DNA of 64,000 nt from an uncultured virus (IMG/VR IMGVR_UViG_2675903516_000002) (IMGVR_UViG_2675903516_000002); one strand, 5' to 3'; numbered from the stretch's first letter, positions 5,105-43,424 are shown. A program made the numbers and translations. Notes: a model not told the origin generated them from the letters alone.

Positions 5105-5775
5105 TGTTCATGCCTCCAGACAGAATGGGTAAGGCGTAGGTAAGCTGGCCGTAGTTGTTCTCGACGGCTTAGACGTCCGATGTTTTCATGATGAAGAATG
5201 GTGTTATCACCGAGATAAATCATGGCGTGGCAAGGGTCGGTTTCAGGGAATGCACGCCGGATAAGCACATCACCTGGCTGAATATCTTGCATCTCAATCG
5301 GATGAAATCTATTGGCTGGCATGTTCTTCAAGTAAAGGTTTTCGCCTCGAAGCCACCAACCGTTAGTGCGTTCAAAATCAGGTAAGTCGATGCCGCATAA
5401 GTGGTAGGCGTCACGAAATAGCGTGTAGCAGTCCATCACACCATGCTTGAAAGTCCGACCTAGCAGGTACTCTACAGGTCTAAATTTCCGAAGCTTTCCA
5501 CCGCTAGCCAGCCACCAATCGATACCGGTTGCCAGTTGGGCTGTCCGATCTGCGCCAGATAGCACTAACTTTTGCCCTGGGTGAGAATGAAAAACGGCGG
5601 TGATTTCTCCCGCCGCTTCAGCATGCAACCAGTCATCGTCACTTATCCTGAAATGTCGCTCAGGTGTCGGATGCGCATTCCTGCACTTAATCAGACTCCT
5701 CCCATCAACTATCAGGCCGCAAACCTCATCACCAGACGAGGCCGCGAACTCAAGGCATTCATTTTCAAGCATCAT
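5047..5775 (-). CDS. K: Tail tip assembly protein (lambda K-like; JAB + NlpC/P60)
   Basis: EVCGL, HSHP...SGAD, DCYTLFRDAY motifs. Confidence 0.93.
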   Translation of the reverse strand: MMLENECLEFAASSGDEVCGLIVDGRSLIKCRNAHPTPERHFRISDDDWLHAEAAGEITAVFHSHPGQKLVLSGADRTAQLATGIDWWLASGGKLRKFRPVEYLLGRTFKHGVMDCYTLFRDAYHLCGIDLPDFERTNGWWLRGENLYLKNMPANRFHPIEMQDIQPGDVLIRRAFPETDPCHAMIYLGDNTILHHENIGRLSRREQLRPAYLRLTHSVWRHEQCSYLDLRGIFDDISARSL

Positions 5776-6476
5776 GACACCTTAGCTGAACCGGGGAAGC
5801 CGCCGAACGGCAGCGAGGAAGGTTTCGGATAGCGTTTACGGCACCCTGACGGATGCTTAGAACACTTATCTTTTGATGGGTCGGATGTCGGGATATCTTT
5901 ATCATCAGCAACTGGCGGCCCAGAGTAACCACAGCCATCACCGCGATATATCCACTGGCAAACATCAGCCAGGATAGTACGCGCGGGAATAATGGCATTA
6001 TCACAGTCAACAGGAGTGGCAAGGTTGTAAGTCACTGTCTCGAAAGTTTCCTCAACCATTTCTTCAATCACGTAGCGGGAAACAACTTCCATCGTGGTAT
6101 CCGAATCTGGATTGCCACCAGGAAAATTAACTGCATCAAGATTTTGAACCAGAACCTGCCGCCGCGTTACGATCGCGCCCAATGCATCATCAAAATCGCT
6201 GTTAATACCGGTGATTAGGCCGGTGATATTCGCAACCTTCATGGTCGGGCGAGAATATGTACCTTCTGATTTAACCTCAAAGCCTTCAACAGCTATCGGA
6301 TAAGCTGAGTATTGCCGCCCTTTCCAGATAACATCACCGTAATAACCGTTAGTTCCAGAGTGAAAGCGGATAACATCACCGCCGAATGACTGCAAATCAA
6401 CCTCGAATAGGTCAATCATTGCGCCAACGCCAGAGTCCACACTCTCAATTATTAAATTGGCTGGTATATCGCGCAC
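5772..6476 (-). CDS. L: Minor tail protein (lambda L-like)
   Basis: CQWIYRGDGCGY...DKCSK...GC...PFGGFPG Cys cluster. Confidence 0.95.
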   Translation of the reverse strand: MRDIPANLIIESVDSGVGAMIDLFEVDLQSFGGDVIRFHSGTNGYYGDVIWKGRQYSAYPIAVEGFEVKSEGTYSRPTMKVANITGLITGINSDFDDALGAIVTRRQVLVQNLDAVNFPGGNPDSDTTMEVVSRYVIEEMVEETFETVTYNLATPVDCDNAIIPARTILADVCQWIYRGDGCGYSGPPVADDKDIPTSDPSKDKCSKHPSGCRKRYPKPSSLPFGGFPGSAKVS

Positions 6477-28931: not shown

Positions 28932-29285
28932 CTATATAGTTAATTTAGTCTCATGCCAGCCAAGAGTTTGCCAGCATTCACTTTCACCTATAAATGCACA
29001 GCCCTGACTATCACCAGGTAGGGCATCGCCACATTTACCGCACTTGCGCCCAGCTTGCTCTTTGAGCTGCGCCTGTAGCTCTGCGTTATCTTTGCGTATC
29101 AACATAGTTATGTACTCGTCCATGTCATACGGCTCGCGCTGCGGCCGACGCAAGGCGCAGTTCTGCTGTAACATTTCCTTTTCTTGCTGGTCTATCGTCG
29201 CTATTAATTTATAACTGCCGTTCTCACGTTCTTTTTGCCGTTGTAGGCGTTTACGGGCCGTAGCCCGTTCCTTGGTGTCAGTCAT
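28932..29285 (-). CDS. Cys-rich putative DNA-binding protein, homolog of 51374-51733
   Basis: Basic N-terminus, YDMDEYITMLIRKDN, CGKCGDALPG...C...CWQT. Confidence 0.8.
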   Translation of the reverse strand: MTDTKERATARKRLQRQKERENGSYKLIATIDQQEKEMLQQNCALRRPQREPYDMDEYITMLIRKDNAELQAQLKEQAGRKCGKCGDALPGDSQGCAFIGESECWQTLGWHETKLTI

Positions 29286-31447
29286 GCCGCCATCCTCCAA
29301 ATACACAACTCTGGCATATTCGCCCTTACCAATGCCTCGGCAAAAGGTGGCGGTACCGCATTACCACACCTTGCCACCTGCTCAGATTTAGGCCAGATTG
29401 TGCCGTCAATATCTCGGTCAATAATGTAGTCTGGCGGGAACCCACTAGCGTTGTACAGTTCACGCGCAATCAGCATGCGCATACAAATATCAACGATGAT
29501 GTATTCGCCTACCGATAGAAATTGTGGCCGTGGTGCAGGGAATAAATGCCAGTCGTCCGGCAAATCGCTGAAATGATCCACCAGCCGCGCGCAGTTCCAT
29601 GCGTTGTAGCGTTGCTCGTCGGTCAGTGGTTCGGCATCAAGATTGCTTTCCACCAAGCCAAAACGTTCTTTGGTTGTCACAGCATGTATCGGCTCTGATA
29701 AATCCACCTCGCCGCCAGTGCCGTAATACTTGGTCAGAAATGCGTTTACCAGTCCGACATGATTACCGCCCGCGGTTAAAGTCGGTACCGGTTCGGTGAT
29801 GGGTTTACCATCGCGACATGTACCACGCAGTTGTACCAGGTGAGATGTACAAAGCGCATGGTGATCGACCGTAGTGATAGTATGCAATGGCTCGTTAATA
29901 TCGATGCCTGCACCGGTGTAATTTCCACCGTAATGCTTAACAAGGTTAGCAGTGGCGATTGCTGTATGTGACTGAGTAGCAATGGTGTTGATTGGTGAAT
30001 TGATATCTCGTGGTTTTCCTGAGTATGTTGGGCCACCGGCCCCCACCAATACCGCACTGGCTAACTGGCTTTTACCGCCCCCACCCGCTGTAACGGTACC
30101 CAGCGGCGTATTGATATCATTTGCCGTACTGTTACCGAACTGACGTACAACTACCGGCGCAGCAATAGCAAAACCATGCGTTCTGGTTATGGTCTGTAAC
30201 GGATCGCGCAATGACTGCCCACGGAAACAATCATATTTGGTTTTGGTGCTGGTGTGATTGCACTTCACCGCATACGGCTCCAGCAACAAATGCTCGGCCT
30301 TACTGGTAATTGTGGTTAGTGGCTGGTCTATTGGGTATTGCAGACGGTCACCACCAAAACCAGTTTGTCCCAGTCGCACAATAAACGGATCGGGGTTATC
30401 AATAACAAACCGCTGTAATCCTTTGACGATGCGCCGCAAGGTGTTATCAGCCAAATCCTTTTTGCGACCGAAAATAGAACGTGTTGGCTGGCTCCAGTCG
30501 ATACACTCCGCCGCCGTTCGCCAAGGTTGCAGCATGCCAGAAAGCACATCAGTAGAGTTGGGTGCGCCGTGGCTTGGCTCCGGCCAGACAACTGGCTCAC
30601 CGTCACAACGCCCAACCACAAACAACCGTTTTCTAATAGTGGGTGTGCCGTAATCACAGGCTTTCAGTTCCCGGTGATCAACGTTATAACCCAGCCCTGA
30701 AACCAACCTTGCTGCTTCAGGGCCATTGATATCTATCTTCAAGAATTCACACACTTCGACCAGTGCGGGGTGATTAGCATCAATCCCAGTACCTAGCATG
30801 CCAATAAACGCTTTGAACGTTTCGCCTTTACGGGCTGGATCAGGTCGGTGATTGCCTTCACTATCCGTCAAAAGTGGCCCCCAGCCGCGAAATTCTTCGA
30901 CGTTCTCCAGCATCAGAAAACGTGGGCGTACTGCCAGCGCCCAGCGCAATACGACCCATGCCAGACCACGAATCTCTTTCTTGACTGGCGTTCCGCCCTT
31001 GGCCTTAGAGAAATGGCGGCAATCAGGACTAAACCAACCCAGTAATACCGGTAAACCGCCCGTTGAGATGAGCGGATCAACACTGAAAATATCCTCAGGG
31101 TAATGCAGCGTGCGCGGGTGATTAATGGCATGCATCGCCATGGCTACCGGATTATGGTTCATCGCGATGTGTGGTTCATAGCCTAATGCTTGCTTGATTC
31201 CCTCGCAGCTCCCACCGCCACCAGCGAACCCAACGACAACCAGACCATCCTGCAAATCAGGTCGTGCAACTGTGATTTCTTTGCGCCGCGCCCATGCATG
31301 AGCCGCCTTTTGAATGTTGCGCGGGTCTTCTCGCGTCAAAAACATTTGGTTCATATTGGCCAGTAGCTGCTGTTGCTCTGGCTCACTCATTGGGTGAACA
31401 GGAATGACTGATGAGGCACATTGCTGAACTTCAGTAGGCCAGATCAT
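29282..31447 (-). CDS. Phage DNA cytosine-5 methyltransferase
   Basis: FAGGGG, PDCRHFS, ENV, RKR, GNAVPP motifs; repeated PLxTIT segments. Confidence 0.92.
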   Translation of the reverse strand: MIWPTEVQQCASSVIPVHPMSEPEQQQLLANMNQMFLTREDPRNIQKAAHAWARRKEITVARPDLQDGLVVVGFAGGGGSCEGIKQALGYEPHIAMNHNPVAMAMHAINHPRTLHYPEDIFSVDPLISTGGLPVLLGWFSPDCRHFSKAKGGTPVKKEIRGLAWVVLRWALAVRPRFLMLENVEEFRGWGPLLTDSEGNHRPDPARKGETFKAFIGMLGTGIDANHPALVEVCEFLKIDINGPEAARLVSGLGYNVDHRELKACDYGTPTIRKRLFVVGRCDGEPVVWPEPSHGAPNSTDVLSGMLQPWRTAAECIDWSQPTRSIFGRKKDLADNTLRRIVKGLQRFVIDNPDPFIVRLGQTGFGGDRLQYPIDQPLTTITSKAEHLLLEPYAVKCNHTSTKTKYDCFRGQSLRDPLQTITRTHGFAIAAPVVVRQFGNSTANDINTPLGTVTAGGGGKSQLASAVLVGAGGPTYSGKPRDINSPINTIATQSHTAIATANLVKHYGGNYTGAGIDINEPLHTITTVDHHALCTSHLVQLRGTCRDGKPITEPVPTLTAGGNHVGLVNAFLTKYYGTGGEVDLSEPIHAVTTKERFGLVESNLDAEPLTDEQRYNAWNCARLVDHFSDLPDDWHLFPAPRPQFLSVGEYIIVDICMRMLIARELYNASGFPPDYIIDRDIDGTIWPKSEQVARCGNAVPPPFAEALVRANMPELCIWRMAA

Positions 31448-31950
31448 TGCGCCCCCTCACGTAGTCTTGCTGCGAAATCAAGAATATTGGAAATCTCGCC
31501 TGTATCTGCCATTACACCAACGTCAAAGGCTTGTACGTGACGGTGCTGCGCAAATTTTTCAACACCACTCGCCTCTACATCATTAAGAGCCAGAATGGTT
31601 GCAGGGACACTAATTACTTCGTATAGCGCCTCAAATGCATCTTCTTCATAGTCGCCACATGAAGAGATGCCATCTACCGTATTCAGATGCCCCCTGTTGT
31701 AACCAGCGTTATATACATGGACGCAGGATTGTTGAAGTGCTGCGTTCTCGGCAACAATCACATTATATTTCCCCTGCCACTCCAAACACTCCCGCTCATA
31801 ATGCTTCGCTGTGCGCCGGTTCTTATTAGCTGAGGTCACCAGCTCCGCTATGCGATCAGCGATGCCGTTTAGCACCTCACTTTCACGTGGTTCCACTCTT
31901 TCCGCTGCTGAACGAATTGCAGCAATCATGCCATCGGTTGAAATATTCAT
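31444..31950 (-). CDS. Ead/Ea22-like hypothetical protein
   Basis: AENAAL...GVEKFA...FAARLREG pattern. Confidence 0.55.
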   Translation of the reverse strand: MNISTDGMIAAIRSAAERVEPRESEVLNGIADRIAELVTSANKNRRTAKHYERECLEWQGKYNVIVAENAALQQSCVHVYNAGYNRGHLNTVDGISSCGDYEEDAFEALYEVISVPATILALNDVEASGVEKFAQHRHVQAFDVGVMADTGEISNILDFAARLREGAQ

Positions 31951-32198
31951 TTGGTCTCGCCTCTGTGGTCTCTACGGTCACGCCAGTAATTTAAGCGCTC
32001 TTTAAAAAACTCTCGGTAATGCACCGGTACCCGTTCAATCGCTTCAAGTACATGAGCGCGGTTGGTCCTGCGCTCGTACAGGTTTTTGATTAAGCCGCTG
32101 GCTCTCAAATCAAGATTTAGCTTTTCTTGGTATTCCTGAGGCCAGAGGCAAATGTTGTACGGGAGTCCGGGCGGGAGATAATCAGATTGCCCGGACAT
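31947..32198 (-). CDS. Hypothetical protein
   Basis: Coupled ORF with GGAG RBS. Confidence 0.7.
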   Translation of the reverse strand: MSGQSDYLPPGLPYNICLWPQEYQEKLNLDLRASGLIKNLYERRTNRAHVLEAIERVPVHYREFFKERLNYWRDRRDHRGETK

Positions 32199-32202
32199 GG
32201 TA

Positions 32203-32583
32203 TTAACTCCCCATGCCTACAGTGCTCATCAGTTGATTTATTCGGGATGCTCGCAAGCAGTACGCCAACTCCTTATCATCAAATGGCATTCTGGCGGGTT
32301 TAGTTCGGGGTTCGCTTTTATTGCGTTTGACTTGTGTGTCAGAGAATCGGAAAAAATCCTCTGAGATACTGTTGAGGGTGTATTGAGTCTTTCGACCATT
32401 GCGGCGGGTAATGTCTGCATGAGGTGAGAGCACCATGCTTCTCACACGGATACGCAGTACGTTAATAGGCATTTCAGCATTAGGGAATTTTAAAGCTATA
32501 GCCTCGATAATCTGGCTGTAGCTCATGCTTTGGCCCAGCATAACCTCAGCCAATTCACGGGTAGTTAGTTCACGTTTTTTCAT
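32203..32583 (-). CDS. Hypothetical protein (possible winged HTH)
   Basis: 126 aa after helicase gene. Confidence 0.7.
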   Translation of the reverse strand: MKKRELTTRELAEVMLGQSMSYSQIIEAIALKFPNAEMPINVLRIRVRSMVLSPHADITRRNGRKTQYTLNSISEDFFRFSDTQVKRNKSEPRTKPARMPFDDKELAYCLRASRINQLMSTVGMGS

Positions 32584-32627
32584 GGTCTTGCCTCTTTTGG
32601 GGTTACTTAAACGCTGGTCAGGCGCGG

Positions 32628-33989
32628 TTAAAATTTTTTTGTTGAGTAACTTCTATTGTTTGATTTTGCTTCCTGCTGCATACGGCATACTTGCTCTGCA
32701 CTAGTTTGGTTAGTTGGCATGTAATGCCCATTTTTAAATTGCTGGTACACGACACCCGGAATGCCAAATCTATCTTTAGCTAAAATCAATTCGGCGTAGT
32801 CCTTGGCTGGACTGAGTGGGTTATAAATAACATCGCGGTAGGTGAAAATTATTCGGTCAGCGTCTTGTTCAACAGAACCAGAGTCACGCAGATCGGCGGG
32901 AACGGGACGACGCATACCCGCGGGCCTTTCGTCCACCTTTCTAGATAGTTGGCTTAAGGCGATAACAGGCGTATGGATGCGTTTTGCAAGGGCTTTGAGG
33001 CCACCGGATATTTTGCCAACGGCCAGATCATGCCGCTCAGCTTTTGGTGTGGTAATTAGCCCCATGTAATCAACAAATACGCCACTCAAGTGCGGGTAAC
33101 GGCGTTTATGCGTTTCAGAAATGGCGCGTATCTGATCAATGGTGAGTTCGCTGGCATCAACAATCCAAATATCCTGATTAACCAACTCGCCAAGGCTGTT
33201 AGATATGCGCGCCCAATCCTCCTCATAAAGTACGCCAGAACGCAATTTGGATACGGGTAGTTGGGCAGATCCGGCAATGGTACGTTCGGTAATCTGCTGT
33301 GCTGCCATCTCCATAGAGAACAACAAAGCGCCACCACCATTACGGGTCATGCCGTTAATCATGCTTAACGCCAACTCTGTTTTACCCATGCCGGGGCGTC
33401 CGGCCAGTATAATTAAATCGGTGGGGTTAAAGCCTCCGGTCAACTGATCCAGCGGTTCAATGCCGGTCATGATCATGCGGGTTTCTTCTGCGCCTAAGTT
33501 CCGTTTTTCCAGCGTGTCGACATAGGTATCCATCAATTCCTTGATGTGTACCGGCATTAAGCCGCCACTTTCGCTTGTTAATTCGGTCATGGTGACCATG
33601 AATTCAGCTACAGCAAACTTGGCCTGTTCATGACTGTGAGAGGCGGCCAATTGCTGCTGCCCTTTTTGGATTGCTGCCGTCAACGCACGTACATGCCAAT
33701 ATTCGCGAACCAGGTCTGCATAGCCCTTGAGATTTGCAGCGCTCCAACAGCTTTTTGCTGTGCTTAAGACGTTGGCAAAATCATCACCCCCCATCGACTC
33801 GCCGACTAAGATCGGATCAATGACTGACGTCCCCAGCGCCTGACGCTTAATCTCGATATACACGCGGCGGAAGAATGCCGTATTAAAGGCGTCCTCAGGC
33901 AAAGTGGCAATAACGTCATAGGCATCTGGTGTAGCGCCACCGAGCAGCAGGCCACCCACTACCGCTGACTCTAAATCGTATGCATTCAT
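32628..33989 (-). CDS. dnaB: Replicative helicase (DnaB-like)
   Basis: AGRPGMGKT, FSMEM, DYMGL, LSQLSR, DLRDSGSVEQDAD. Confidence 0.95.
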   Translation of the reverse strand: MNAYDLESAVVGGLLLGGATPDAYDVIATLPEDAFNTAFFRRVYIEIKRQALGTSVIDPILVGESMGGDDFANVLSTAKSCWSAANLKGYADLVREYWHVRALTAAIQKGQQQLAASHSHEQAKFAVAEFMVTMTELTSESGGLMPVHIKELMDTYVDTLEKRNLGAEETRMIMTGIEPLDQLTGGFNPTDLIILAGRPGMGKTELALSMINGMTRNGGGALLFSMEMAAQQITERTIAGSAQLPVSKLRSGVLYEEDWARISNSLGELVNQDIWIVDASELTIDQIRAISETHKRRYPHLSGVFVDYMGLITTPKAERHDLAVGKISGGLKALAKRIHTPVIALSQLSRKVDERPAGMRRPVPADLRDSGSVEQDADRIIFTYRDVIYNPLSPAKDYAELILAKDRFGIPGVVYQQFKNGHYMPTNQTSAEQVCRMQQEAKSNNRSYSTKKF

Positions 33990-34960
33990 AGCGCACCATC
34001 ACGGGTTTTTCTTAAAACTTCCGGTTTCATCAGATAATCAAAGTTTGCCCGCCAGCCTGCCCCATCATCACCACCGAAATAAAACACGGTTGCCTGTCCG
34101 CGAAAGGCTTCGAAGTAGCTCTGGAACGCTTCAAGGTCTTTGGTTTTGAGGTATTGGAGTAATTCGCGGATGGCGTGTTTACGGTCCTGATCGATTTCAG
34201 CCGGTGGCAAAACATCGCTGAATACACGGTTATACGCAGCAATGACCTCATCGCAATCAATCCGCCCGGCAGACTCAGACCATGCGCGGGCATCAGCCAG
34301 ATAACCATCGAACCGGTTTACACGGCAGATATTCGCAGGTTTGGCATACTTGCCGTTGCGGGGTTTCCATGTGCTGACTACCCATAGGGCCACCAGTTGC
34401 AAATCAGCCAGCGCGTAGGCTTTGCGTGATTTCGTTGCCGTCAGCAAGGTTTCGAATGGGCTAGAATCTTCACACCGAGTGTGAGTGAGTTCGTTGTAAT
34501 ACGCCAAAGCCTTTTCAGCGTCAGCGAGAATATTTTCGGTTTCCCCTTGAGGGGTAAGGGGTGTATTTGGATCTATGACTGGTTCAAAAGAGTGACTGGT
34601 TCTGGGTGCAGCATTTGCACCACTAACCGGTGCACCATTTACACCAGAGGGTGCAGGAGATTCACCATAGGGTGCAGCATTTGCACCAGCGGAATTTAAG
34701 CGCAGGTGATAAACATTTGAACGATTCAGGCCATTATCAGATTTACGTTCTTCAATCCTAACCAGCCCACTTTTGACCAGTTCTTGAATATGATTCTGTA
34801 CCGAGCGTTCGGATATTTCACACTGATCGGCAATGTAGGGAACCGATGGCCAGCACTCGCCCTGATCGTTCGCATTATCAGCTAATTTTATCAGCACTAA
34901 CTTTCGTAACGGGTTGCCGACTTTGATATTCATGGCCCGAGCCATTAGATTCATGCTCAT
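33986..34960 (-). CDS. Replication initiator (N-terminal HTH)
   Basis: KLVLIKLADNANDQGECWPS; internal iterons; WRANFDYL. Confidence 0.9.
   Translation of the reverse strand: MSMNLMARAMNIKVGNPLRKLVLIKLADNANDQGECWPSVPYIADQCEISERSVQNHIQELVKSGLVRIEERKSDNGLNRSNVYHLRLNSAGANAAPYGESPAPSGVNGAPVSGANAAPRTSHSFEPVIDPNTPLTPQGETENILADAEKALAYYNELTHTRCEDSSPFETLLTATKSRKAYALADLQLVALWVVSTWKPRNGKYAKPANICRVNRFDGYLADARAWSESAGRIDCDEVIAAYNRVFSDVLPPAEIDQDRKHAIRELLQYLKTKDLEAFQSYFEAFRGQATVFYFGGDDGAGWRANFDYLMKPEVLRKTRDGAL
34605..34687. repeat. Four 17-bp iterons (replication origin)
   Basis: ggtgcagcatttgcacc-like units at 34605, 34629, 34650, 34671. Confidence 0.85.
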
Positions 34961-34962
34961 AG

Positions 34963-35187
34963 TCAGATCCCTAGCGCTTCGGCTATTTGCCGACAGGCAG
35001 ACTGATAATCGTCAGGCGATAGGTTCATCCCGCGCAGGTCGGCTTTCTTTTGTTCATACTGCTCCCACACGCTATAGGCGGCTACCTGACGCCCGGCAAA
35101 AATAGGGGCGATGTCAACCATGCTTGCCGGTTGGCCGTTAAGCCGGAATCCGTTGCGCCAGGTGATTTTGTCGATAGATGTAAGCAT
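34963..35187 (-). CDS. Hypothetical protein
   Basis: 74 aa between cII-like and initiator genes. Confidence 0.7.
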   Translation of the reverse strand: MLTSIDKITWRNGFRLNGQPASMVDIAPIFAGRQVAAYSVWEQYEQKKADLRGMNLSPDDYQSACRQIAEALGI

Positions 35188-35203
35188 TGGTCTTGCCTCT
35201 GTT

Positions 35204-35668
35204 TTATACGGTGGTCAGCCGGTGGTGTTGTGGTCTGATTGCGTGAAGTGCCGCAACAGCGCCCGATATCCTTTGTGACATGTCACAGCCATCTAATAGA
35301 ACCGCGCTAATTGCTGCGGCAAACTCTCGACTGGCAATCGAAACCAAATAATTCACGGTCTCGCCATTCACCCTGGCCCGCCGTTCTGCCGGGAGTGCCG
35401 CTTTAAGTACCGGTGATAATTCCAAGACCTTGCGCATTGATGCTTTTGAATCCCCGCGCAGCCAGCGAAATAACTGCTGCCGGTTGTTGTTAATAGACTT
35501 CCAATCAGCGCCGCCCTGCCCGTTTTCAATGGGAGTGAGACGAACTGAACCGGTGTTGATATTGAGCAAGAAAAACATTCTGCTGATCTCGATAGCTACA
35601 TGCTCCTGCCCCCGCTCTGCCGCCCACGCCTGAACTTCGGCTTTAAGGGCTTTAATTTCTTGTTCCAC
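35204..35668 (-). CDS. YdaT-family CII-like regulator
   Basis: VQAWAAERGQEHVA...NRQQLFRWL; cII position. Confidence 0.8.
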   Translation of the reverse strand: MEQEIKALKAEVQAWAAERGQEHVAIEISRMFFLLNINTGSVRLTPIENGQGGADWKSINNNRQQLFRWLRGDSKASMRKVLELSPVLKAALPAERRARVNGETVNYLVSIASREFAAAISAVLLDGCDMSQRISGAVAALHAIRPQHHRLTTV

Positions 35669-35691
35669 GTTGCGTCTCCTGTCGCAGGAAA

Positions 35692-35709
35692 TTGATTATT
35701 GATAATCAG
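35692..35709. promoter_or_regulatory. YdaT-type site TTGATT-N6-AATCAG (pRE position)
   Basis: One mismatch from the TTGATT-N6-AATCAA operator I recall for CP-933P YdaT; second copy at 40667-40684. Confidence 0.65.
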
Positions 35710-35728
35710 ATTTGTGAGTGGGATTGGG

Positions 35729-35914
35729 TTAGGCTGCACTTCGATACATAGCGGGGTCATATTTCAGTTCGCCATGAGTCATGCGTTCAATCTTCATTGC
35801 CTGTTTCTCAGGGATAATTGCCCCCCAACGGCAAACTGCTGGGTGCTTTATGCCTAAGGCCGTGGCGGTATTCACTACCCCACCAAAAAACTTGACGACA
35901 TCTTTCTTGTTCAT
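35729..35914 (-). CDS. cro: Cro-like repressor
   Basis: DVVKFFGG...ALGIKHPAVCRWGAIIPE; divergent from cI. Confidence 0.9.
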   Translation of the reverse strand: MNKKDVVKFFGGVVNTATALGIKHPAVCRWGAIIPEKQAMKIERMTHGELKYDPAMYRSAA

Positions 35915-35944
35915 AGGAACTCCTTGTTTAACTCAGGATGAAAG

Positions 35945-36006
35945 GTAACAAAAGGTACATAACAATGCAAACACTTTTCACATCGCTATGGCGTAACATT
36001 GGTTAC
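35945..36006. promoter_or_regulatory. OR operators (GTAAC-N4-GKTAC)
   Basis: gtaacaaaaggtac 35945-35958; gtaacattggttac 35993-36006. Confidence 0.7.
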
Positions 36007-36669
36007 ATGAAAAATGAAATGAATGACCGCATCCGTCTTCGCAGACTGCAGCTAGATCTCACGCAAGTCCAATTAGCCAAAGCTATTGGGGTGAGCCGTG
36101 TATCAGTGACAAAATGGGAGTCAGGAATCACTAAACCAGATGGGGAAAATCTTCACCGGCTGGCGCAAATACTTTCATGCACGCCAGAGTGGTTACTCTA
36201 TGGTACCGGAGATTTACGTCAGGTTGACGATACGAAGATTAAGCCCCTCGTCGCTGTGCCTAATGCCATACCTGTCATCTCATCCGTTCAAGCCGGTGCC
36301 TGGACAGAAACCTACTCCGCCGCCCGTATCTCTGATGTTCTTAGATGGTGCAACACCACAGTGAAGGTTTCTGAAAACGCATTTGGTTTGGATGTTCGGG
36401 GTGAGTCAATGACCAACCCCAATGGTTCCCCTTCTATCCCCGAGGGGTCTACCGTTATCGTAGAACCTAATTATGGTTCTATTGATGATTTGTACGGTAA
36501 AATAGTGGTCGCCATCATTGATGGCAGCTCCGAGGCCACCATTAAAAAGTTAGTTGTTGATGGCCCCAATAAATACCTAATGCCTTTAAATCCCAATTTC
36601 AAACCCATCGAAATAAACGGCAATTGCCGTATTCTCGGTCGCGTTGTTCAGGTTACCCAAGACCTGTAA
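36007..36669 (+). CDS. cI: CI repressor (HTH + S24 autopeptidase)
   Basis: HTH, VQAGAW cleavage site, GESM serine and TIKKL lysine. Confidence 0.95.
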   Translation: MKNEMNDRIRLRRLQLDLTQVQLAKAIGVSRVSVTKWESGITKPDGENLHRLAQILSCTPEWLLYGTGDLRQVDDTKIKPLVAVPNAIPVISSVQAGAWTETYSAARISDVLRWCNTTVKVSENAFGLDVRGESMTNPNGSPSIPEGSTVIVEPNYGSIDDLYGKIVVAIIDGSSEATIKKLVVDGPNKYLMPLNPNFKPIEINGNCRILGRVVQVTQDL

Positions 36670-36712
36670 TCAATAGCCCATCCCCCTGATGGGCTTTTTT
36701 ATGCCCCTAAAT

Positions 36713-36764
36713 GTAACTATTGGAACACCCCCTTATTGACACGAAAGGTAACTATAGGTACATT
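36713..36764 (+). promoter_or_regulatory. pL promoter with OL operators
   Basis: TTGACA(36736)-17-TACATT; operator copies at 36713-36726 and 36748-36761. Confidence 0.75.
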
Positions 36765-36909
36765 TCTCTCATCAACACGGCACAGTAGCCGATGCGAACA
36801 GGCAGGACGCCCACGAAGTAGCTGCCGGTGGCATACGAAACACCGGATGATTCGCAAGTTTAGGTTTAGTACGTTCTGGCAGCCGGGAAGACGGCAAAAG
36901 AGGGAAGTT

Positions 36910-37065
36910 ATGAAAGCAACTAAAAAGCAAGCGAGTAAATTCCAGATCCAATATCGCTACTGTGGAATGTGGGCTAACGGAAATACTTACCCAACTCGCA
37001 AAGAAGCTGATGATTACGCACGTAATACTGGCCGTGATTATCAAGTAGTCAAAGTACGGCAATAA
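36910..37065 (+). CDS. Small early protein
   Basis: 51 aa MKATKKQ with GAGGG RBS. Confidence 0.55.
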   Translation: MKATKKQASKFQIQYRYCGMWANGNTYPTRKEADDYARNTGRDYQVVKVRQ

Positions 37066-37375
37066 CAGAATTTGGGTTGTTGCATTGGAGGAGAACCCCG
37101 CGCCAAGGCTCGGCATGATTACCACAGTGCAGCAGCCCAAACCAATAACGTAGCCACGACGGGAAAGTGTGGTGAGGCAAGACCGAAGATCTGACCCGCT
37201 GGCCCGGCGTAATGGGCACCAAATTACAGACGTAAAAAAACCCACCGAAGTGGGCTTCTTTACCCCGGGTCACCGACCAAAGTTAACCGGGAAGCTAACG
37301 GGGACCAACCCGTTAACAGAGGCAAGACCAACGGCTTACGCCATCAATCTTAAAATAAGTATATCAGGAGTTGCT

Positions 37376-37711
37376 ATGACAGCACTACAGATAACCACCA
37401 AGCTCTACATCCATACCAATCCATATTCAACATCAAAAGATGATCGCTTTACCGTGTACACCTGTGACATGTCACAGGTTGAGCCAGCGCATGTTTTACT
37501 CGAAACCCGAGAAATTACGATTCCTTTTGACGAACCCGACCCTTTTGAAATCATCAGCAAGCATGTCGATTCACTCCATAGCAAAAAGGAACAGATTGCG
37601 GCTGAGTCATATCGTAAGCAGTCACTAATTGATGATCAGATTCAGGCGTTGCTATGCATCGAGCACAGCACTCCATCGAACGTATCTGATGATACCGAAA
37701 TTCCTTTTTAA
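37376..37711 (+). CDS. Hypothetical early protein
   Basis: AGGAG RBS; ends in DDTEIPF, like an SSB acidic tail. Confidence 0.75.
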   Translation: MTALQITTKLYIHTNPYSTSKDDRFTVYTCDMSQVEPAHVLLETREITIPFDEPDPFEIISKHVDSLHSKKEQIAAESYRKQSLIDDQIQALLCIEHSTPSNVSDDTEIPF

Positions 37712-37766
37712 TTAGTCATACATCAAAGACCAAGATCCGTTTAAAAACCAAAGAGGCAAGACCAAC

Positions 37767-39965
37767 ATGACTGTATTTATTTGTTTATTCGAGCCGAAAA
37801 AAGCGGCTCTCAAAAATGGGGCTATACCGCTTGTTATAGCTCTGGAAGCCATAAATAAGAAAATGGCATCCGCACTGGCCATCGGGAAATTATGGGAAGC
37901 TTACCCCGCTGCCGGTGATAACTTTGCTGATCCGAAAATCTGTGAGGATACTGTCGGGCAACCGCGCCCGGTTGTTGGTGAGTTCGATGAGCAGTTCGCA
38001 CAGGATAATACCTTTGATGGCAAAGTATGGACGCCTAATGCTGTACCGTTGCCTGAGGATGGTAATGAAGACAACGGCGAGGTAAGTGAGGACATTACTA
38101 CTACTACTCCGGTTGATTTCAACAAACTGGGTATTGGAGCTAAAGTTGGTAGCGTAATGTTGTACGGTGCGCGTGACATTGATTCACATGAGCTATCACT
38201 TGTGTATGACTTAATTAATGATGACGACGCTGAGCCGGAAATAAGTTCGATATACATGGCGCTCACATGTATTCCTGCAATTGGCGCGATGTATCCGCAG
38301 TCAATTAAAAATCTTATTGATGCGATAAATAAGAAATTCCCCAAAATACCTGGATTCAGGGAAGTACGTAGCTTTGCTGAAAAATGGGTTAATGAACCCA
38401 GCAATCGTGACGAGTTAACCGGTACTAAAAAAGTTGCCCGTATTGACACGCCGGCTCCTGATGCGCCAATCAAACGCAGCTTTGAGCACACATATAAAAC
38501 GCTCGATCTCGAAGTCGCTCTCGCCTTATTGCCTGCTGATTTTAACTGCTGGGATGTCATGTCGGCAGAGATGAAGCAAGCAAAAGAGCTGATGGATAAC
38601 AATGATGATGCCTGGCGTAAATGGTCAACCGATTTTCGCGTTCGCAACAATGTGTTATCTATTCCACGTGAAAGCATCTTTGAAGTGATCCGCGCGGGTA
38701 AAAAGCAACCTATCTTCCTGACCGATGCCTCAGCACGAAAGGAATTTATCACTCAGTGTTTAGCCGTTAAAAACCCACAACCCGCAGTAACCAATCTGGG
38801 TGATGGCAAGTTCTCTATTGATGGTCTAGCCGGTGGTGAACCGCAACCAGCGGCAAACAATGAAACAAAACTGGCGCTGGTTGCCAATTCTGAGCCAGAA
38901 ACTGAAACAAAACCGCCAATTGTTGAAACAGAACAGGAAAACCCTGAACTGGAACCTATCACTGATAACGCAGCTCAACAGGCTAAAGAGACGTTGGATC
39001 AGTTGGGTTACAGCGTTTATGCCTCAGTTGAGGAGAAGCCGACAGAGGTTATTGAAGAGGCGCAGCAAAGCGCTATTCCTACTGTAGATGTTACTGCTGA
39101 TGAATTTCAGCAGCGAGCCGTCATCATTGAAGAGGATATATCTTCACAGCCACAAGATGTGCAGGACAACATGAATCTGTGGCGCTCGGTGCAAAGAACC
39201 GATGAACGCTTTACTAAAGCATTCTCAAATAACGGTGGTGGCACGTCGATTAACGGCACCTATATGGTTATGCAAGCAACAAAATTGCTTGGGCCACAAG
39301 GTATCAACTGGCGGGTGGAGATTTTAGAAGAACGCTTTGATAACGGTGCACCGATCATGCGGTCAGTCAAAGGTGCTGATGGAAATTATATAAAAGAAGT
39401 CATACCCAACGGATCTGGCGGCTATCTAACTGAGATCAATCATGTCATTAAAATACGCTTAATCTACACCCTGCGTGGTGAGCGTGGCGAAATCCCTGCA
39501 TATGGTTGCACCCCATATATCTACAACACCAAAAACGGTCTCACCTGTGATAGTGAAGTCACCAAAAAATCACTAACGGATGCGACTAAAAAGGCACTGT
39601 CACAACTTGGTTTCTCTGCTGATGTATTCCTCGGTCTTTTTGATGATCTCGGATACCGCACTGATAACGCCGCTGAGTTTGCTATCAAGAACGCAAGTGA
39701 GAAAGCCGGTGACTCAGTTCGTCTGCGCAAAGAGCTGGATGAGAAGTTAACCAAAGTAGGCAATACCATTACGAGCGCCGTCACCACCAACGAAGTGAAC
39801 AAGGTTTACAGCACCATTGCGCGTGAAGTTGATGTACACCGCAAAGATGCAGAAGCCAAAGCCGATCACGAACACGCCAATTACCTCAAAACCCGCCTGC
39901 TGGCGTTACACCGCTTAACTGAAAAACGGGTTGCTGAACTTACCGCACAGGAGCCGACATTATGA
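37767..39965 (+). CDS. RecE-like N-terminal region fused to Rad52/Sak-like annealase domain
   Basis: HTYKTLDLEVALAL RecE-N-like segment; LWRSVQRTD...LGPQGINW...KKSLTDATKKALSQLGFSADVFLG C-terminus. Confidence 0.7.
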   Translation: MTVFICLFEPKKAALKNGAIPLVIALEAINKKMASALAIGKLWEAYPAAGDNFADPKICEDTVGQPRPVVGEFDEQFAQDNTFDGKVWTPNAVPLPEDGNEDNGEVSEDITTTTPVDFNKLGIGAKVGSVMLYGARDIDSHELSLVYDLINDDDAEPEISSIYMALTCIPAIGAMYPQSIKNLIDAINKKFPKIPGFREVRSFAEKWVNEPSNRDELTGTKKVARIDTPAPDAPIKRSFEHTYKTLDLEVALALLPADFNCWDVMSAEMKQAKELMDNNDDAWRKWSTDFRVRNNVLSIPRESIFEVIRAGKKQPIFLTDASARKEFITQCLAVKNPQPAVTNLGDGKFSIDGLAGGEPQPAANNETKLALVANSEPETETKPPIVETEQENPELEPITDNAAQQAKETLDQLGYSVYASVEEKPTEVIEEAQQSAIPTVDVTADEFQQRAVIIEEDISSQPQDVQDNMNLWRSVQRTDERFTKAFSNNGGGTSINGTYMVMQATKLLGPQGINWRVEILEERFDNGAPIMRSVKGADGNYIKEVIPNGSGGYLTEINHVIKIRLIYTLRGERGEIPAYGCTPYIYNTKNGLTCDSEVTKKSLTDATKKALSQLGFSADVFLGLFDDLGYRTDNAAEFAIKNASEKAGDSVRLRKELDEKLTKVGNTITSAVTTNEVNKVYSTIAREVDVHRKDAEAKADHEHANYLKTRLLALHRLTEKRVAELTAQEPTL

Positions 39966-40462
39966 GCAATACAGCAATCGCATTAGCCGCAGACCTTTTC
40001 AAACTGCAACAGTTGGTTGAGTCCTCAGAGGAACTCACGCCAGAAATGATCGCCGATACGCTTGAGGGGTTAGAGGGTGCCCTGGGGGATAAGCTGGATG
40101 CAACCTACGTCTTTGTTCGCAATCTTGAGGGGCAAGCAAAGACCTGTGATGAGGAAGCTAAACGTCTGGCTGAGCGGAAAAGGTCATTCGAGAATCGGGC
40201 CAAATCGATCAAACAGTACGTCCTTAACTGCTTATTGGCCGCAGATATGAACACACTTAAAACGCCGTATAACACATTCACCGCACGCAAAGGTGTGGCC
40301 AGTGTGGTGATCGACAATGAAGACTTATTGTCCAGTGAATTGGTGACAGTGCAAACCACCGTAGCGCCCGATAAAAAAGCCATTAAGGAAGCCATAGAGA
40401 ATGGTGTTGATGTTAAAGGTGCGCATATCGAGATCGGTAGCCGTAGCCTGCAGGTTCGCTAA
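39962..40462 (+). CDS. Siphovirus Gp157 family protein
   Basis: IADTLEG...EAKRLAERK...PDKKAIKEAI...GAHIE. Confidence 0.88.
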   Translation: MSNTAIALAADLFKLQQLVESSEELTPEMIADTLEGLEGALGDKLDATYVFVRNLEGQAKTCDEEAKRLAERKRSFENRAKSIKQYVLNCLLAADMNTLKTPYNTFTARKGVASVVIDNEDLLSSELVTVQTTVAPDKKAIKEAIENGVDVKGAHIEIGSRSLQVR

Positions 40463-40507
40463 TTTCATCCCGCCCCAAACCAACGGGGCATTACTGAGGC
40501 AACACCC

Positions 40508-40690
40508 ATGCTAAAGCGTACTCACAAACGCGGTGAAAAGTCCTATATCACACTCCCCGATGGACGAACAGGCACCATCCACACTGATCGCCGTTGTGAT
40601 GTTCACTACGATTTTCCGGTAGATGTTCGAATTAGCAGCACCCCACCGCAGAAAGCACCCGAAAAATTGATTTTGCATAATCAGAAATAA
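40508..40690 (+). CDS. CsrA/RsmA-like small protein
   Basis: MLKRTHKRGEKSYI...CDVHYDFPVDVRISS aligns by eye with CsrA MLILTRRVGETLMI...VRIGVNAPKEVSVHR. Confidence 0.55.
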   Translation: MLKRTHKRGEKSYITLPDGRTGTIHTDRRCDVHYDFPVDVRISSTPPQKAPEKLILHNQK

Positions 40691-40739
40691 TCAACCTGCC
40701 CCGCTAGCATGGTGGAAATCCAACACCAGGGAAACCACC

Positions 40740-40946
40740 ATGCAGCCATGGCAACCGGGCAAACGCCTATTAACCGACTTAGATATTAAGATCGGCAAAT
40801 TATCAGCCAGTGTACGGAAACAACAACTCACCGACCACGATATACAGCGGGCCTGTTCTGCGACCGACAGAGCAATAACCCAAATGATACAGGGGCAAGA
40901 CCATGAAAAACGACCACGACATAATCACCAAAGAGGAGATGATTGA
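40740..40946 (+). CDS. Hypothetical protein overlapping xis start
   Basis: 68 aa with CAGGG RBS. Confidence 0.55.
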   Translation: MQPWQPGKRLLTDLDIKIGKLSASVRKQQLTDHDIQRACSATDRAITQMIQGQDHEKRPRHNHQRGDD

Positions 40947-41139
40947 GTTGACCGGTCATCACTACAAAACCAAACAATGTGACTCTTTACGCCGCTCGGG
41001 GATCTTTTTTATCCGACGCCCAGACGGACACCCGAAAACCACTTGGGGCCATTTTTTGAATCCAATCAGTTTACGCGGTAAGCCGCTAGAGCCAGAAAAA
41101 GAAGAACCCAATTTCGAGGCCATGAACAGTGGCCGGTAA
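40903..41139 (+). CDS. xis: Excisionase-like protein (DUF4224)
   Basis: EMIELTG...KQCDSL...GIFFIRRPDGHP...EPNF; overlaps int start. Confidence 0.85.
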   Translation: MKNDHDIITKEEMIELTGHHYKTKQCDSLRRSGIFFIRRPDGHPKTTWGHFLNPISLRGKPLEPEKEEPNFEAMNSGR

Positions 41140-42145
41140 ACGCAAGAACGCCGCAGACACGGCATTACCACCTCGGGTGTATCGTGGAAAATCGAAATAT
41201 GAATTCCACCCCGCCCGCGGTGGCTCAATATCGCTATGCCCATTGGATGCACCTATTTCTCAAGTATGGTCATGCTACGAAAAAATAAATAATGAGCCAT
41301 TAGAAAAAGCCAACTTGAATAAACTCATTGAACAGTTTTTCCGCTCTGTTGATTTTAATGAGTTAGCTGTTGAGACGCAGAAAGACTACCGCAAATATTC
41401 ACTTAGAGTATTACCAGTTTTCGGGAAAATGGAACCAGACAACATAAAACCTGAACATATCAGGAAATATATGGATAGACGCGGGGTTGCCAGTAGAACA
41501 CAGGCAAACCGTGAGAAAACTTTCCTATCGCGGGTTTATCGTTGGGGTTATGAGAGGGGAATGGTAAAAGGCAACCCATGCAAGGGTGTTAAGCAATTTA
41601 AAGAGGTTAGCAGGGAACGATACATTACTGACGCTGAATATAGCGCTCTCTACAACGTAGCTCCGCCGATTGTAAAAGCGGCAATGGAACTCGCCTATCT
41701 TTGTTGCGCTCGGCAAGCAGACATCCTCGCCTTAAAAAAGTCACAGCTAATAGATGCCGGGGTATTTATACAGCAAGGGAAAACAGGAAAGAAACAGATC
41801 AAGGCATGGACGGAAAGATTACAGCAGGCCATCAAAATTGCAGATGGAATAGAAATCGCTCCAGGTGTGAGCAGTATTTATGTACTACATCAGCGGTCTG
41901 GGCATGGCTACACAAGAGATGGTTTCAATAGTCGGTGGCGCAACGCAAAATTATTGGCCGCAAAAACATTTTCCGAATTGGACTTTGATTTCACGTTTCA
42001 TGATTTAAAAGCCAAGGGAATATCAGACTTAGAGGGAACCCTCGCAGAGAAGCAAGCCATTTCAGGGCACAAGAATACAGCCCAAACAGCAAGATATGAT
42101 AGGAAAACAGAAATTGTGCCAGTGGTAGGCGGTCAGAAAAAGTGA
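41129..42145 (+). CDS. int: Tyrosine integrase (lambdoid prophage)
   Basis: ARQAD, FHDLKAK, SGH...TARY catalytic motifs. Confidence 0.95.
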   Translation: MAGKRKNAADTALPPRVYRGKSKYEFHPARGGSISLCPLDAPISQVWSCYEKINNEPLEKANLNKLIEQFFRSVDFNELAVETQKDYRKYSLRVLPVFGKMEPDNIKPEHIRKYMDRRGVASRTQANREKTFLSRVYRWGYERGMVKGNPCKGVKQFKEVSRERYITDAEYSALYNVAPPIVKAAMELAYLCCARQADILALKKSQLIDAGVFIQQGKTGKKQIKAWTERLQQAIKIADGIEIAPGVSSIYVLHQRSGHGYTRDGFNSRWRNAKLLAAKTFSELDFDFTFHDLKAKGISDLEGTLAEKQAISGHKNTAQTARYDRKTEIVPVVGGQKK

Positions 42146-42170
42146 ATTTTTATTCAGATAACCGAAATCA

Positions 42171-42203
42171 TGTTAGGAAATGATGTTAGGAACATCTTAG
42201 GAA
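42171..42203 (+). repeat. Three TSTTAGGAA direct repeats, likely Int arm sites
   Basis: Copies at 42171, 42184, 42195 between int and att core. Confidence 0.65.
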
Positions 42204-42218
42204 TGAGATTTCAGGCAC

Positions 42219-42241
42219 AAAAAAACCGCCTCTCGGCGGTT
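42219..42241 (-). terminator. Intrinsic terminator downstream of tRNA 3' end
   Basis: aaccgcc-gaga-ggcggtt plus T tract on minus strand. Confidence 0.8.
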
Positions 42242-42285
42242 AACGACATACTCATACTACTTTGTTTTACTTAGATTTGTTTCCA

Positions 42286-42339
42286 TGGTGCCCGGGGCGG
42301 GACTTGAACCCGCACAGCCATAAGCCGAGGGATTTTAAA
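42286..42339 (-). pseudogene. leuZ: 3' half of tRNA-Leu(UAA); att junction between the two prophages
   Basis: Minus strand TTTAAAATCCCTCGGC...GGGTTCAAGTCCCGCCCCGGGCACCA: anticodon loop to CCA; 5' half absent; IHF-like aatcaatcactta at 42360. Confidence 0.9.
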
Positions 42340-42449
42340 AACTCTCACGGCATTATGGAAATCAATCACTTACGTAAAATCAGTAAGTTACCAAACACGA
42401 TGGCGGGTTAGTTTGGGTTGTTGCGGGGGTGGTAGTCACTCAATAAACG

Positions 42450-43424
42450 CTAGTCTTTACTTTTAAGAGCTTTCTTTTTTTCCACATATGCCAAGAAAGA
42501 TAGCCCTTTCTGTGTTGTTGCATATCTTCTGTATCTAACAGAAGGAACTTTTTCATTCAAAACTAAGCCATGAATTTGTAACTTTGGACATAGAGTAAAA
42601 TACATAAAACCAGCTTCTGCACTTTCACCAATTCCATTAGTAACTCCATTAATTAGACTTTCTTTAAGCGTTAAGAACATATGTAGTAGATGTAATTCTT
42701 TTTCTTCTTCTAAATGCCATAAACCAGTGGGAACTAATATTTTTGTATTAAGCAAAATTTTATATAACTCTTCATTATCAGCATCTTTTTCTTTTTTATT
42801 ATTATTAATTTTACTAATTTGGGTTGTAAGTTTTACGTGCTCTACTTTGAGTTCTGAGTTCTCTTGCACGAGTCGACTAATTTCATCAACAAGTACTTTT
42901 GTGTCTGGAACCTCACTTCCAGAAATCCAACCAGATAAATCACGAGTTCGAGCTATTTCTGGTAAACTTTCTAGCACACATAATTTTATATCCTTAACAT
43001 CATCATAAAAGGATGACATGTTAGAAAGTACTTTTTCCCGAAATATTTTTAACTGTTTAGGATTATCTCTTTCTAAAGCATCACTCCCAAAAATTTTAAC
43101 TTTATTCTCCAAAGCATTATCTTTGATAACAACAGAAAATAACGGTTTATTAGTCTCTAACGCATAATTATATTCTAATTCTGTATAGCTAATACCAGAC
43201 TCAGGTTCAACGGAGCCATATCGACCACCTAAGATAAGCATATATACATCGGATTCATCTATCCAATTTTTTATTGTTTCCCATTGACTACGGTCACCAG
43301 CAGTGAACAACTCCATCCCTGCCGGGATATGACCTGTTTTCAAAATAGCTGAAACTGCGGCTTGCCTTTCGTCCTTTAAATCATTGAAAGTAGAAGATAC
43401 AAACACTTGTAATCTTTTTCTCAT
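42450..43424 (-). CDS. DUF4062-domain protein, candidate defense cargo
   Basis: QVFVSSTFNDLKDER...PAGMELF...IDESDVYMLILGGRYGS...SYTELEY; AT-rich. Confidence 0.88.
   Translation of the reverse strand: MRKRLQVFVSSTFNDLKDERQAAVSAILKTGHIPAGMELFTAGDRSQWETIKNWIDESDVYMLILGGRYGSVEPESGISYTELEYNYALETNKPLFSVVIKDNALENKVKIFGSDALERDNPKQLKIFREKVLSNMSSFYDDVKDIKLCVLESLPEIARTRDLSGWISGSEVPDTKVLVDEISRLVQENSELKVEHVKLTTQISKINNNKKEKDADNEELYKILLNTKILVPTGLWHLEEEKELHLLHMFLTLKESLINGVTNGIGESAEAGFMYFTLCPKLQIHGLVLNEKVPSVRYRRYATTQKGLSFLAYVEKKKALKSKD

Follow-up and report, generated by a model that had tools for sequence, protein, structure and literature searches.

Small phage RNAs that pair with the phage's own early transcripts include c4 of P1/P7, sar of P22, OOP of lambda and the CI RNA of P4; c4 uses two exposed stretches to pair with two sites, and a ribosome-binding site is covered by one of these. 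In Salmonella, the small RNA (sRNA) IsrB was detected as an 88/94-nt RNA that is induced by starvation (PMC2330248, available part of the text) and is expressed from the prophage in the lysogen (PMC7067206, available part). A second related system is found in Cluster K mycobacteriophages, where the start-associated sequence (SAS) with its ESAS is an asymmetric 13-bp word that includes the Shine-Dalgarno sequence (SD) and occurs in 11-19 copies located 3-7 bp before starts, with ATG preferred; the copies are found in the non-structural half of the genome only, are absent from the host, and about half of them have an upstream inverted repeat (PMC3203893). According to the accessible part of that paper, the arms of ESAS do not support RNA pairing and are thought to be DNA sites, and the SAS reader is not known (PMC3203893). 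Here, a locus that links both systems is described in a stretch of 64,000 nucleotides from an uncultured virus (IMG/VR IMGVR_UViG_2675903516_000002; this whole stretch is called the window), which holds a lambdoid prophage of the Yersinia type. An 11-base word, GAGGCAAGACC, recurs before early genes of this prophage, and the early-left leader carries on its antisense strand a predicted IsrB-family sRNA gene that includes the exact complement of the word. We regard it as probable that the word is the shared target of a trans-acting phage sRNA regulon over early-gene starts, and not a code read by a 60-aa protein (p60) of the same region.

As with IsrB of Gifsy-1 and Gifsy-2, the sRNA gene of the window is located antisense just upstream of an exonuclease gene (exo), and the two have the loop CUUUGGUCGGUGA and the terminator in common; in Gifsy-2, isrB was matched with 99.3 bits at 5993-6080 on the plus strand and exoVIII starts at 5955 on the minus strand. 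The gene lies in the early-left leader between cI and exo, which is the most conserved stretch across these phages. The gene, its hairpins and its putative promoter element are:

37234-37351, minus strand: predicted IsrB-family antisense sRNA gene (Rfam isrB and our own covariance model R1)
37234-37254: terminator hairpin CCCAC-CGAA-GTGGG with A7 on the plus strand, which is U7 on the sRNA strand; (near-)invariant in 15 lineages
37264-37291: hairpin H1 with the stem CCCGG/CCGGG and a large loop with CCGACCAAAG on the plus strand; covarying, loop common to the Rfam isrB consensus
37295-37317: hairpin H2 with the loop GACCAA on the plus strand and UUGGUC on the sRNA strand; covarying
37358-37366, minus strand: extended -10-like box TG-n-TATACT for the sRNA, read from the sequence as a consensus match only

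From 5' to 3', the predicted sRNA consists of a 5' hairpin, the anti-motif (complement of 37319-37331), H2' with the loop UUGGUC, H1' with the loop CUUUGGUCGGUGA, and the terminator with U7. When the region 31000-42500 was scanned with Rfam, isrB (RF01386) was the sole family reaching its gathering score. The match of about 88 nt (37235-37321, minus strand) obtained 35.0 bits vs a gathering score of 35, covered model positions 1-87 of 87 and had an E-value of 0.0027 in the 11.5-kb search and of 9.4e-5 in a 401-nt search. An rsmX match was rejected as below threshold (23.6 bits vs a gathering score of 56), and the curated P1/P7 c4 model gave no match among the Rfam hits with E up to 1 in the same region; the likeness to c4 is one of mode of action only. 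A CRISPR direct-repeat match at 37324-37360 on the minus strand (23 bits vs 39) falls within the predicted 5' hairpin and is taken as chance. With R1, the window matched at 37231-37331 on the minus strand with 116 bits. One strong match (88-119 bits) was obtained in 54 of 56 sources and a weaker syntenic one (36.5 and 35.3 bits) in the other two, while Pectobacterium phage ZF40 gave 81 bits; in all 56 sources and in ZF40 the match is antisense and just upstream of p2479/exo. The sRNA gene is thus present in every locus with its strand conserved. In ZF40, gp08 as annotated (NC_019522, L223, 4919-5407) spans the region of the predicted sRNA gene (5260-5366), and comparison with relatives makes a protein start further downstream probable. 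Its score, which is just at the threshold, its place and its structure assign the predicted gene of the window to the IsrB family. The gene differs from the Rfam consensus in its first stem-loop, which has UUGGUC in place of UAUA. Upstream of this stem-loop lies the complement of the word that recurs before early genes; Gifsy-2 has no such word.

The structure of the sRNA is conserved by compensatory change. Across 15 lineages, 91.4% of cells in the three helices were paired compared with 82.7% in shuffled alignments, a level reached by 0/500 shuffles, and 10 pairs showed changes on both sides. For H2 alone, all eight pairs covary and 86.7% of cells pair vs 55.3% after shuffling (0/500 reach), and in H1 (helix 2) both-side changes were found in three of five pairs with 93.3% of cells pairing. 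G.U pairs were possible on the sRNA strand in 51 cells vs 3 solely on the mRNA strand; the structure has therefore been selected in the antisense RNA. The initial annotation had pointed to GACC in hairpin loops as CsrA-type sites; the best-conserved hairpin with a GACCAA loop (37295-37317) turned out to be a stem-loop of the sRNA and not a site on the mRNA. A likeness to the loop of P22 boxB had suggested that the hairpins are N-type nut sites. This reading was dropped, since H1 and H2 belong to the antisense RNA by the strand test and a gene resembling N was not seen. A long-range pairing UUGCCUC/GGGGUAA proposed by RNAalifold (alignment A8) was not adopted, as it never varies and conflicts with the covarying H1.

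The copies of the word in the early region, with the genes that they precede, are:

31953-31963, minus strand: copy with one mismatch, GAGGCGAGACC, before the 168-aa gene (31444-31950, minus strand)
32584-32594, minus strand: exact copy before the 126-aa gene (32203-32583, minus strand)
35189-35199, minus strand: exact copy before the gene of p74 (74 aa, phrog_2465; 34963-35187, minus strand)
37174-37184, plus strand: exact copy A in the early-left leader, no open reading frame (ORF) after it
37319-37329, plus strand: exact copy B, no ORF after it (ACG in place of ATG); its complement is the anti-motif of the sRNA
37753-37763, plus strand: exact copy before exo (732 aa; 37767-39965, plus strand)
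40496-40506, plus strand: copy with one mismatch, GAGGCAACACC, before the gene of p60 (phrog_2482; 40508-40690, plus strand)
40892-40902, plus strand: copy with one mismatch, GGGGCAAGACC, before xis (40903-41139, plus strand)

The five exact copies (32584 and 35189 on the minus strand; 37174, 37319 and 37753 on the plus strand) compare with 0.00 expected from dinucleotide shuffles, and at least five copies were reached in 0/100 shuffles. A one-mismatch copy in addition to the three of the early region was found at 19170 on the minus strand with no start codon after it, and at two mismatches the word is at chance level (15 found vs 13.4 expected). The word is made up of the SD GAGG and a fixed spacer, usually followed by A-ATG. 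In six of the eight early-region copies (31953, 32584, 35189, 37753, 40496 and 40892) an ATG follows within 0-3 nt, and no start comes after the copies at 37174 and 37319. Copy A lies upstream of a terminator hairpin on the leader strand (37174-37230, plus strand). Relatives have 1-3 partly degenerate copies here, and in the leaders of L162, L175 and L211 up to three or four such copies were seen in tandem, followed by a small conserved hairpin ('..ctcggaaagacgggc..'); the leader copies could be a decoy or a second target of the sRNA. Copy B stays beside H2 even in loci where no start codon comes after it. Much of what the initial annotation had said of the word was borne out: the count and the shuffles bear out five exact copies confined to the early region, the variant before the 60-aa ORF is present, and the word is private to the phage and accompanies start codons in each of the two divergent early operons. 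The positions given there for the exact copies were right, and those given as 31951 and 40891 were off by 1-2 nt.

A pattern scan of IMG/VR returned many contigs with several copies of the word. In 22 provirus records, 4-8 exact copies were present in each, compared with 0-1 copies of the reversed word as control. Searching one-per-species genomes with an exonuclease profile yielded 37 loci from Yersinia, Serratia, Pectobacterium, Rouxiella, Providencia, Proteus, Morganella, Photorhabdus, Xenorhabdus, Izhakiella, Mixta and Erwinia, and nearly all of them hold 2-8 exact copies despite a locus G+C content of 34-51%. Altogether, the word is conserved in a like role in 57 related Enterobacterales prophage loci, including phage ZF40, which carries the sRNA gene, eight copies of the word and gp05, a homologue of p60. 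Among the first 22 loci, the word precedes exo in 22 (with at most one mismatch), p74 in 19, p60 in 18, a 100-aa Cys-rich gene in 16 and xis in 8. In host chromosomes the word is at chance level: within whole genomes, the prophage accounts for 7/7 copies in Proteus, 7/8 in Xenorhabdus ehlersii and 6/9 in Yersinia frederiksenii, and the main word occurs once in Izhakiella and not at all in Mixta (reversed word 0-2). The arrangement resembles SAS, since the word is asymmetric, contains the SD, lies a few nt before starts in one orientation, belongs to non-structural genes only and is absent from the host. Unlike with SAS, a candidate RNA reader is encoded beside the sites, and the sequence of SAS (GGGATAGGAGCCC) and its hosts are unrelated to those here. 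A word/sRNA arrangement of this kind at early-gene starts was not found described in the literature searched, and a search with the 11-mer gave only unrelated biomedical papers among the matches listed, mostly on GPX4/ferroptosis.

The DNA of the sRNA gene holds the exact complement of the word, which reads UUGGUCUUGCCUC in the transcript, and copy B (37319-37329) directly adjoins the sRNA's first stem. Of the 57 sources, 56 have, 20-31 nt upstream of the anti-motif, a -10-like hexamer that matches in five or more of six positions; in Izhakiella it is a perfect TGTTATAAT. Judged from the -10 box, the 5' end of the sRNA would lie at about 37351, and, if this promoter is in use, an RNA of about 118 nt with the whole anti-motif is predicted. 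Of 12 lineages folded, 11 gave a predicted 5' hairpin, with differing sequences, that takes in the UUGGUC half of the anti-motif, and in the predicted fold of the 118-nt RNA the GCCUC end of the anti-motif is single-stranded, with an unpaired probability of about 0.94. When duplex energies of the anti-motif were calculated with 318 ORF starts of the window, the five best were those at 35187, 37767, 31950, 40903 and 32583 (-31 to -25 kcal/mol vs a median of -9.2), a ranking that is partly circular because these five genes carry the word; the start of p60 gave -16.9 kcal/mol. The sixth-best duplex (-23.4 kcal/mol) was that with the start of a 1122-aa ORF at 10906 on the minus strand, outside the early region, and may be chance. 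Complementarity is also seen with the loops of the sRNA, as the GACCAA of the word matches the UUGGUC hexaloop of the sRNA, and both UUGGUC-containing sRNA loops match GACCA(A) loops.

In two variant forms of the word, the copy in the sRNA gene and those at the start sites have changed together; a third form, that of the Pectobacterium pair, fits its sites only in part. Within the sRNA gene, the 57 sources show GAGGCAAGACC in 50 cases, GAGGAAAGACC in three (Serratia), GAGGTATGACC in two (Izhakiella and Mixta) and AAGGCAAGACC in two (Pectobacterium). In every locus, a further 1-7 exact copies belong to the locus's own class; they sum to 258, and in 245 of them an ATG follows within 6 nt. In Serratia, GAGGAAAGACC is found in the sRNA copy and at 4-5 start sites, and the main form is absent. 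In Izhakiella and Mixta, the sRNA copy is GAGGTATGACC, which occurs exactly at three or four other places per locus and with one mismatch before exo.

Hairpins were also found on the mRNA side. The initial annotation had described four GACC-loop hairpins upstream of copies of the word, all of which are present; two of these sites proved conserved and covarying, and the hairpins before xis (40855-40873) and exo (near 37722) were not conserved in relatives. The two conserved sites are:

32611-32625, minus strand: mRNA hairpin (G)CGC-CTGACCA-GCG upstream of the 126-aa gene; member of the covarying class
35209-35221, minus strand: mRNA hairpin CGG-CTGACCA-CCG upstream of the p74 gene; 5/5 pairs covary in a class of 22 sequences

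Covarying hairpins lie 17-29 nt upstream of the word at p74, at the gene after DnaB, at p60 in some Yersinia phages and at exo in Serratia. The class has a stem of 4-5 bp, a loop C(U/C/A)GACCA and G.U pairs on the mRNA strand; all five pairs covary and 89.1% of cells pair vs 66.1% in shuffles (0/500 reach). Its loop complements UGGUCGG of the large sRNA loop. By a loose definition, 358 of 1778 GACC sites in the window and the first 21 related loci lie in a hairpin, which is unspecific, and the window alone is therefore weak evidence; of 66 such hairpins, three lie within 40 nt upstream of a copy of the word vs about 0.17 expected by our own estimate. At the p60 site of the window and of the relative L174 (40462-40512, plus strand, in the window), the loop reads AACCAA in place of GACCAA, with GAGGCAACACC as the word, and in the Yersinia relatives L161 and L186 loop and word are both intact; it appears that the two contacts were lost together at this gene.

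We propose that the sRNA, if transcribed in this phage group, would pair in vivo with the SD-spacer word at genes for replication, recombination and excision that lie in both divergent operons, while its loops would kiss the C(Y)GACCA loops of the hairpins upstream of some start sites. Pairing would keep ribosomes from entering and thereby repress the translation of early genes, for example in the lysogen, where Salmonella IsrB is made, possibly with a protein helper (Hfq or p60). Because it is fully antisense to the early-left leader, the sRNA may act also in cis on this leader. Unlike c4, sar, OOP and the P4 CI RNA, which serve one operon or gene each, one RNA would match six or more starts in both divergent operons. 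A wider scheme, in which, for the whole early gene set of a temperate-phage lineage spread across Enterobacterales, a private ribosome-binding word and one antisense sRNA with a kissing-loop first contact form an orthogonal translational switch between lysogeny and lytic growth, with p60 as an optional partner on UUGGUC loops or kissing complexes, is speculative and rather unlikely as a whole.

Several observations weigh against an sRNA regulon. The isrB score only just reaches the gathering threshold, and in a search for data sets that contain the stretch no RNA run was listed. Three RNA-seq runs from material without this prophage gave 4, 0 and 1 partly fitting reads, and X1, a contig of a relative, may be DNA; none of this is evidence either way. 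The mapped ends of Salmonella IsrB, as given in the available part of the source, put the start inside the anti-motif by alignment and leave at most about 9 nt of it, and in locus L155 a second promoter-like site, TTAAAA-18-TATCAT, gives the same start. In the predicted 118-nt fold, one half of the anti-motif (UUGGUCUU) forms pairs within the 5' hairpin. Because many of the 57 sources are close relatives, the independent joint changes number only two or three, and they could also be produced by gene conversion or by any common reader. In the Pectobacterium pair, the sRNA copy has AAGG vs GAGG at most start sites, so that the variant fits only part of them. Among 21 early-gene start sites of Gifsy-2, no recurring word complementary to IsrB was found; hence members of the IsrB family do not generally come with such a regulon. 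Further, the evidence for binding of IsrB to Hfq is thin in the accessible part of the report, with 4 vs 2 cDNA reads (PMC2515195).

A different reader had been proposed in the initial annotation, in which p60 was held to be a CsrA-like protein that reads the word. CsrA binds one hairpin-loop site and one SD site. The kinship was upheld only as a remote one. A profile of the p60 family (A2) run against 1.84 billion proteins retrieved P0037 at E 2.1e-5, which scores 36 bits on Pfam CsrA (PF02599; cut-off 27) and is 44% identical to p60 of the window (P0001) over 45 aa (BLASTP, E 1e-6). P0037 is the single bridge to CsrA and forms a singleton cluster of which it is itself the sole neighbour. In the ESM Atlas, p60 matched viral clusters carrying CsrA with a TM of 0.68, which is a lead only, and five strands in a CsrA-like order are predicted, in a monomer model that cannot show a swapped dimer. 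Direct matches were negative: P0001 hit no Pfam family even at E up to 10, ten further members gave none, and a six-frame CsrA search of five records gave 0/5 at E up to 1. Two models of p60 (pLDDT 74.6 and 80.0) were used for fold searches: Foldseek on the PDB gave no match at E up to 0.001, and none of the matches listed was a CsrA chain; the VIA wide search gave best Z values of 3.6 and 3.9, with CsrA not among the matches listed. A BFVD search with p60 returned nothing at E up to 0.001, PDB sequence searches found only a Bap repeat (E 0.017 and 0.0096), and hhalign of the family alignment A5 with one host CsrA gave a probability of 0.35. Arg44 is important in CsrA, and in a by-eye alignment the residue at its place is not Arg in the Yersinia/Proteus branch. 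From these sequence comparisons, p60 is probably a remote relative of the CsrA superfamily. Like CsrA/RsmA (PF02599), it is predicted to be a small all-beta protein, and P0037 bridges the two. It differs in scoring below the Pfam model, in a Pro-rich tail that replaces the C-terminal helix and in being dispensable for upkeep of the word. On the mRNA strand the word itself lacks a GGA core, and the analogy to CsrA is limited to geometry. The p60 profile also matches repeats of giant adhesin-like proteins (P0016, P0017, P0022 and others; 1,100-4,300 aa, up to 29 stretches). These matches run through a 'TLPDG..G..' segment, and the shorter hits P0033 and P0040 carry Ig-like domains (Big_1, Big_6). 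All named p60 homologues are from Yersinia.

Binding of p60 to GACC(A) in a hairpin loop and beside the SD, with control of early-gene translation, is in our view improbable. The link to CsrA and the strand order speak for it; 20 of 22 IMG/VR records and most genome loci contain p60, the word usually stands before the p60 gene itself, and the loop-to-SD spacing of 17-32 nt is within the range known for CsrA dual sites. Against this stand the lack of a Pfam CsrA match, the low hhalign probability, the Arg44 place, and the assignment of the best hairpin to the antisense RNA. The distribution of p60 speaks against its reading the word, and persistence of the word in phages without the gene, named in the annotation as a refutation, was observed. 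In the X. ehlersii prophage, p60 is cleanly deleted compared with its twin in X. thuongxuanensis, with no copy elsewhere in the genome, and seven exact copies of the word are kept; G013 has only a truncated p60 remnant and keeps five, and the sRNA persists in both. The Izhakiella and Mixta prophages lack p60, p74 and p68 (a 68-aa protein), and the variant word is present. Because the word persists in prophages without it, p60 is not needed for the word.

The word could instead be a start-associated signal that is read by the ribosome or by another phage or host protein, with the sRNA acting only in cis on the leader and copy B being one more copy; such a reader is also left open for SAS of mycobacteriophages. 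We give this a small chance. The 245 of 258 further copies with an ATG within 6 nt and an SD-ATG spacing near the usual optimum fit such a signal, as do the IsrB ends of Salmonella, which exclude most of the anti-motif, and Gifsy-2, where IsrB occurs without such a regulon; p74, p68 and a cII/YdaT-like gene accompany the main class of the word in all loci covering their place, yet the Izhakiella and Mixta loci have the variant word but neither p74 nor p68. Moreover, neither a protein site nor an SD would need 11-13 invariant bases across loci of 34-51% G+C, copy B is retained although no start codon follows, the loops of sRNA and mRNA hairpins are complementary, and the 5' hairpin and the -10 box argue for a transcribed anti-motif. 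The module-boundary alternative of the initial annotation, by which the word is a short identical-DNA linker that guides module recombination at gene borders and has no RNA role, is not needed and very improbable. Mosaic joints do occur at or beside the word: upstream of the exo copy (4879 in L155, 6145 in L156) the sequences of these two loci are unrelated, and downstream they are identical. The phage also has genes for an exonuclease of its own and for a Gam-like protein. Nevertheless, the word is always oriented with the gene at a fixed distance to the ATG, 11-15 bases are very short for homologous exchange, and the covarying RNA hairpins and complementary loops would be left unexplained.

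The remaining features of the early region, in which the copies of the word sit, are:

29282-31447, minus strand: C5 cytosine methyltransferase, 721 aa
31947-32198, minus strand: homologue of the DNA polymerase III theta subunit
35729-35914, minus strand: cro
35938-36669, plus strand: cI, followed by a terminator at 36675-36695
36736-36764, plus strand: promoter-like site of the early-left operon past the cI terminator, TTGACA-17-TACATT, a consensus match only
36910-37065, plus strand: 51-aa Lys-rich ORF with an ordinary SD, first gene past this promoter-like site
37376-37711, plus strand: p2479, upstream of exo

Besides cro, the minus-strand early genes are those for the cII/YdaT-like protein, p74, an O-like initiator, DnaB, the 126-aa protein, the Pol III theta-like protein, the 168-aa protein and the C5 methyltransferase. 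On the plus strand, the 51-aa ORF is without a family match and is followed by a leader of 310 nt; past exo, the order is the Gam-like gene, p60, p68, xis and int. At the DNA level no close phage relative was found, with 0 records covering at least 80% of the query, and the exo protein matched 198 phage records, four of them with at least 80% query coverage.

IsrB has been known since 2008, with no function given in those parts of the literature found that were available, and SAS since 2011 without a known reader; this locus links the two. It offers the hypothesis that one sRNA matches the starts of replication, recombination and excision genes, which is testable in a cultured phage, Pectobacterium phage ZF40. 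If true, temperate phages would tie many early genes to one post-transcriptional switch via a private SD-spacer word, the natural variant words would be ready-made orthogonal pairs, and a possible answer would be at hand to the purpose of start-associated sequences in phages.

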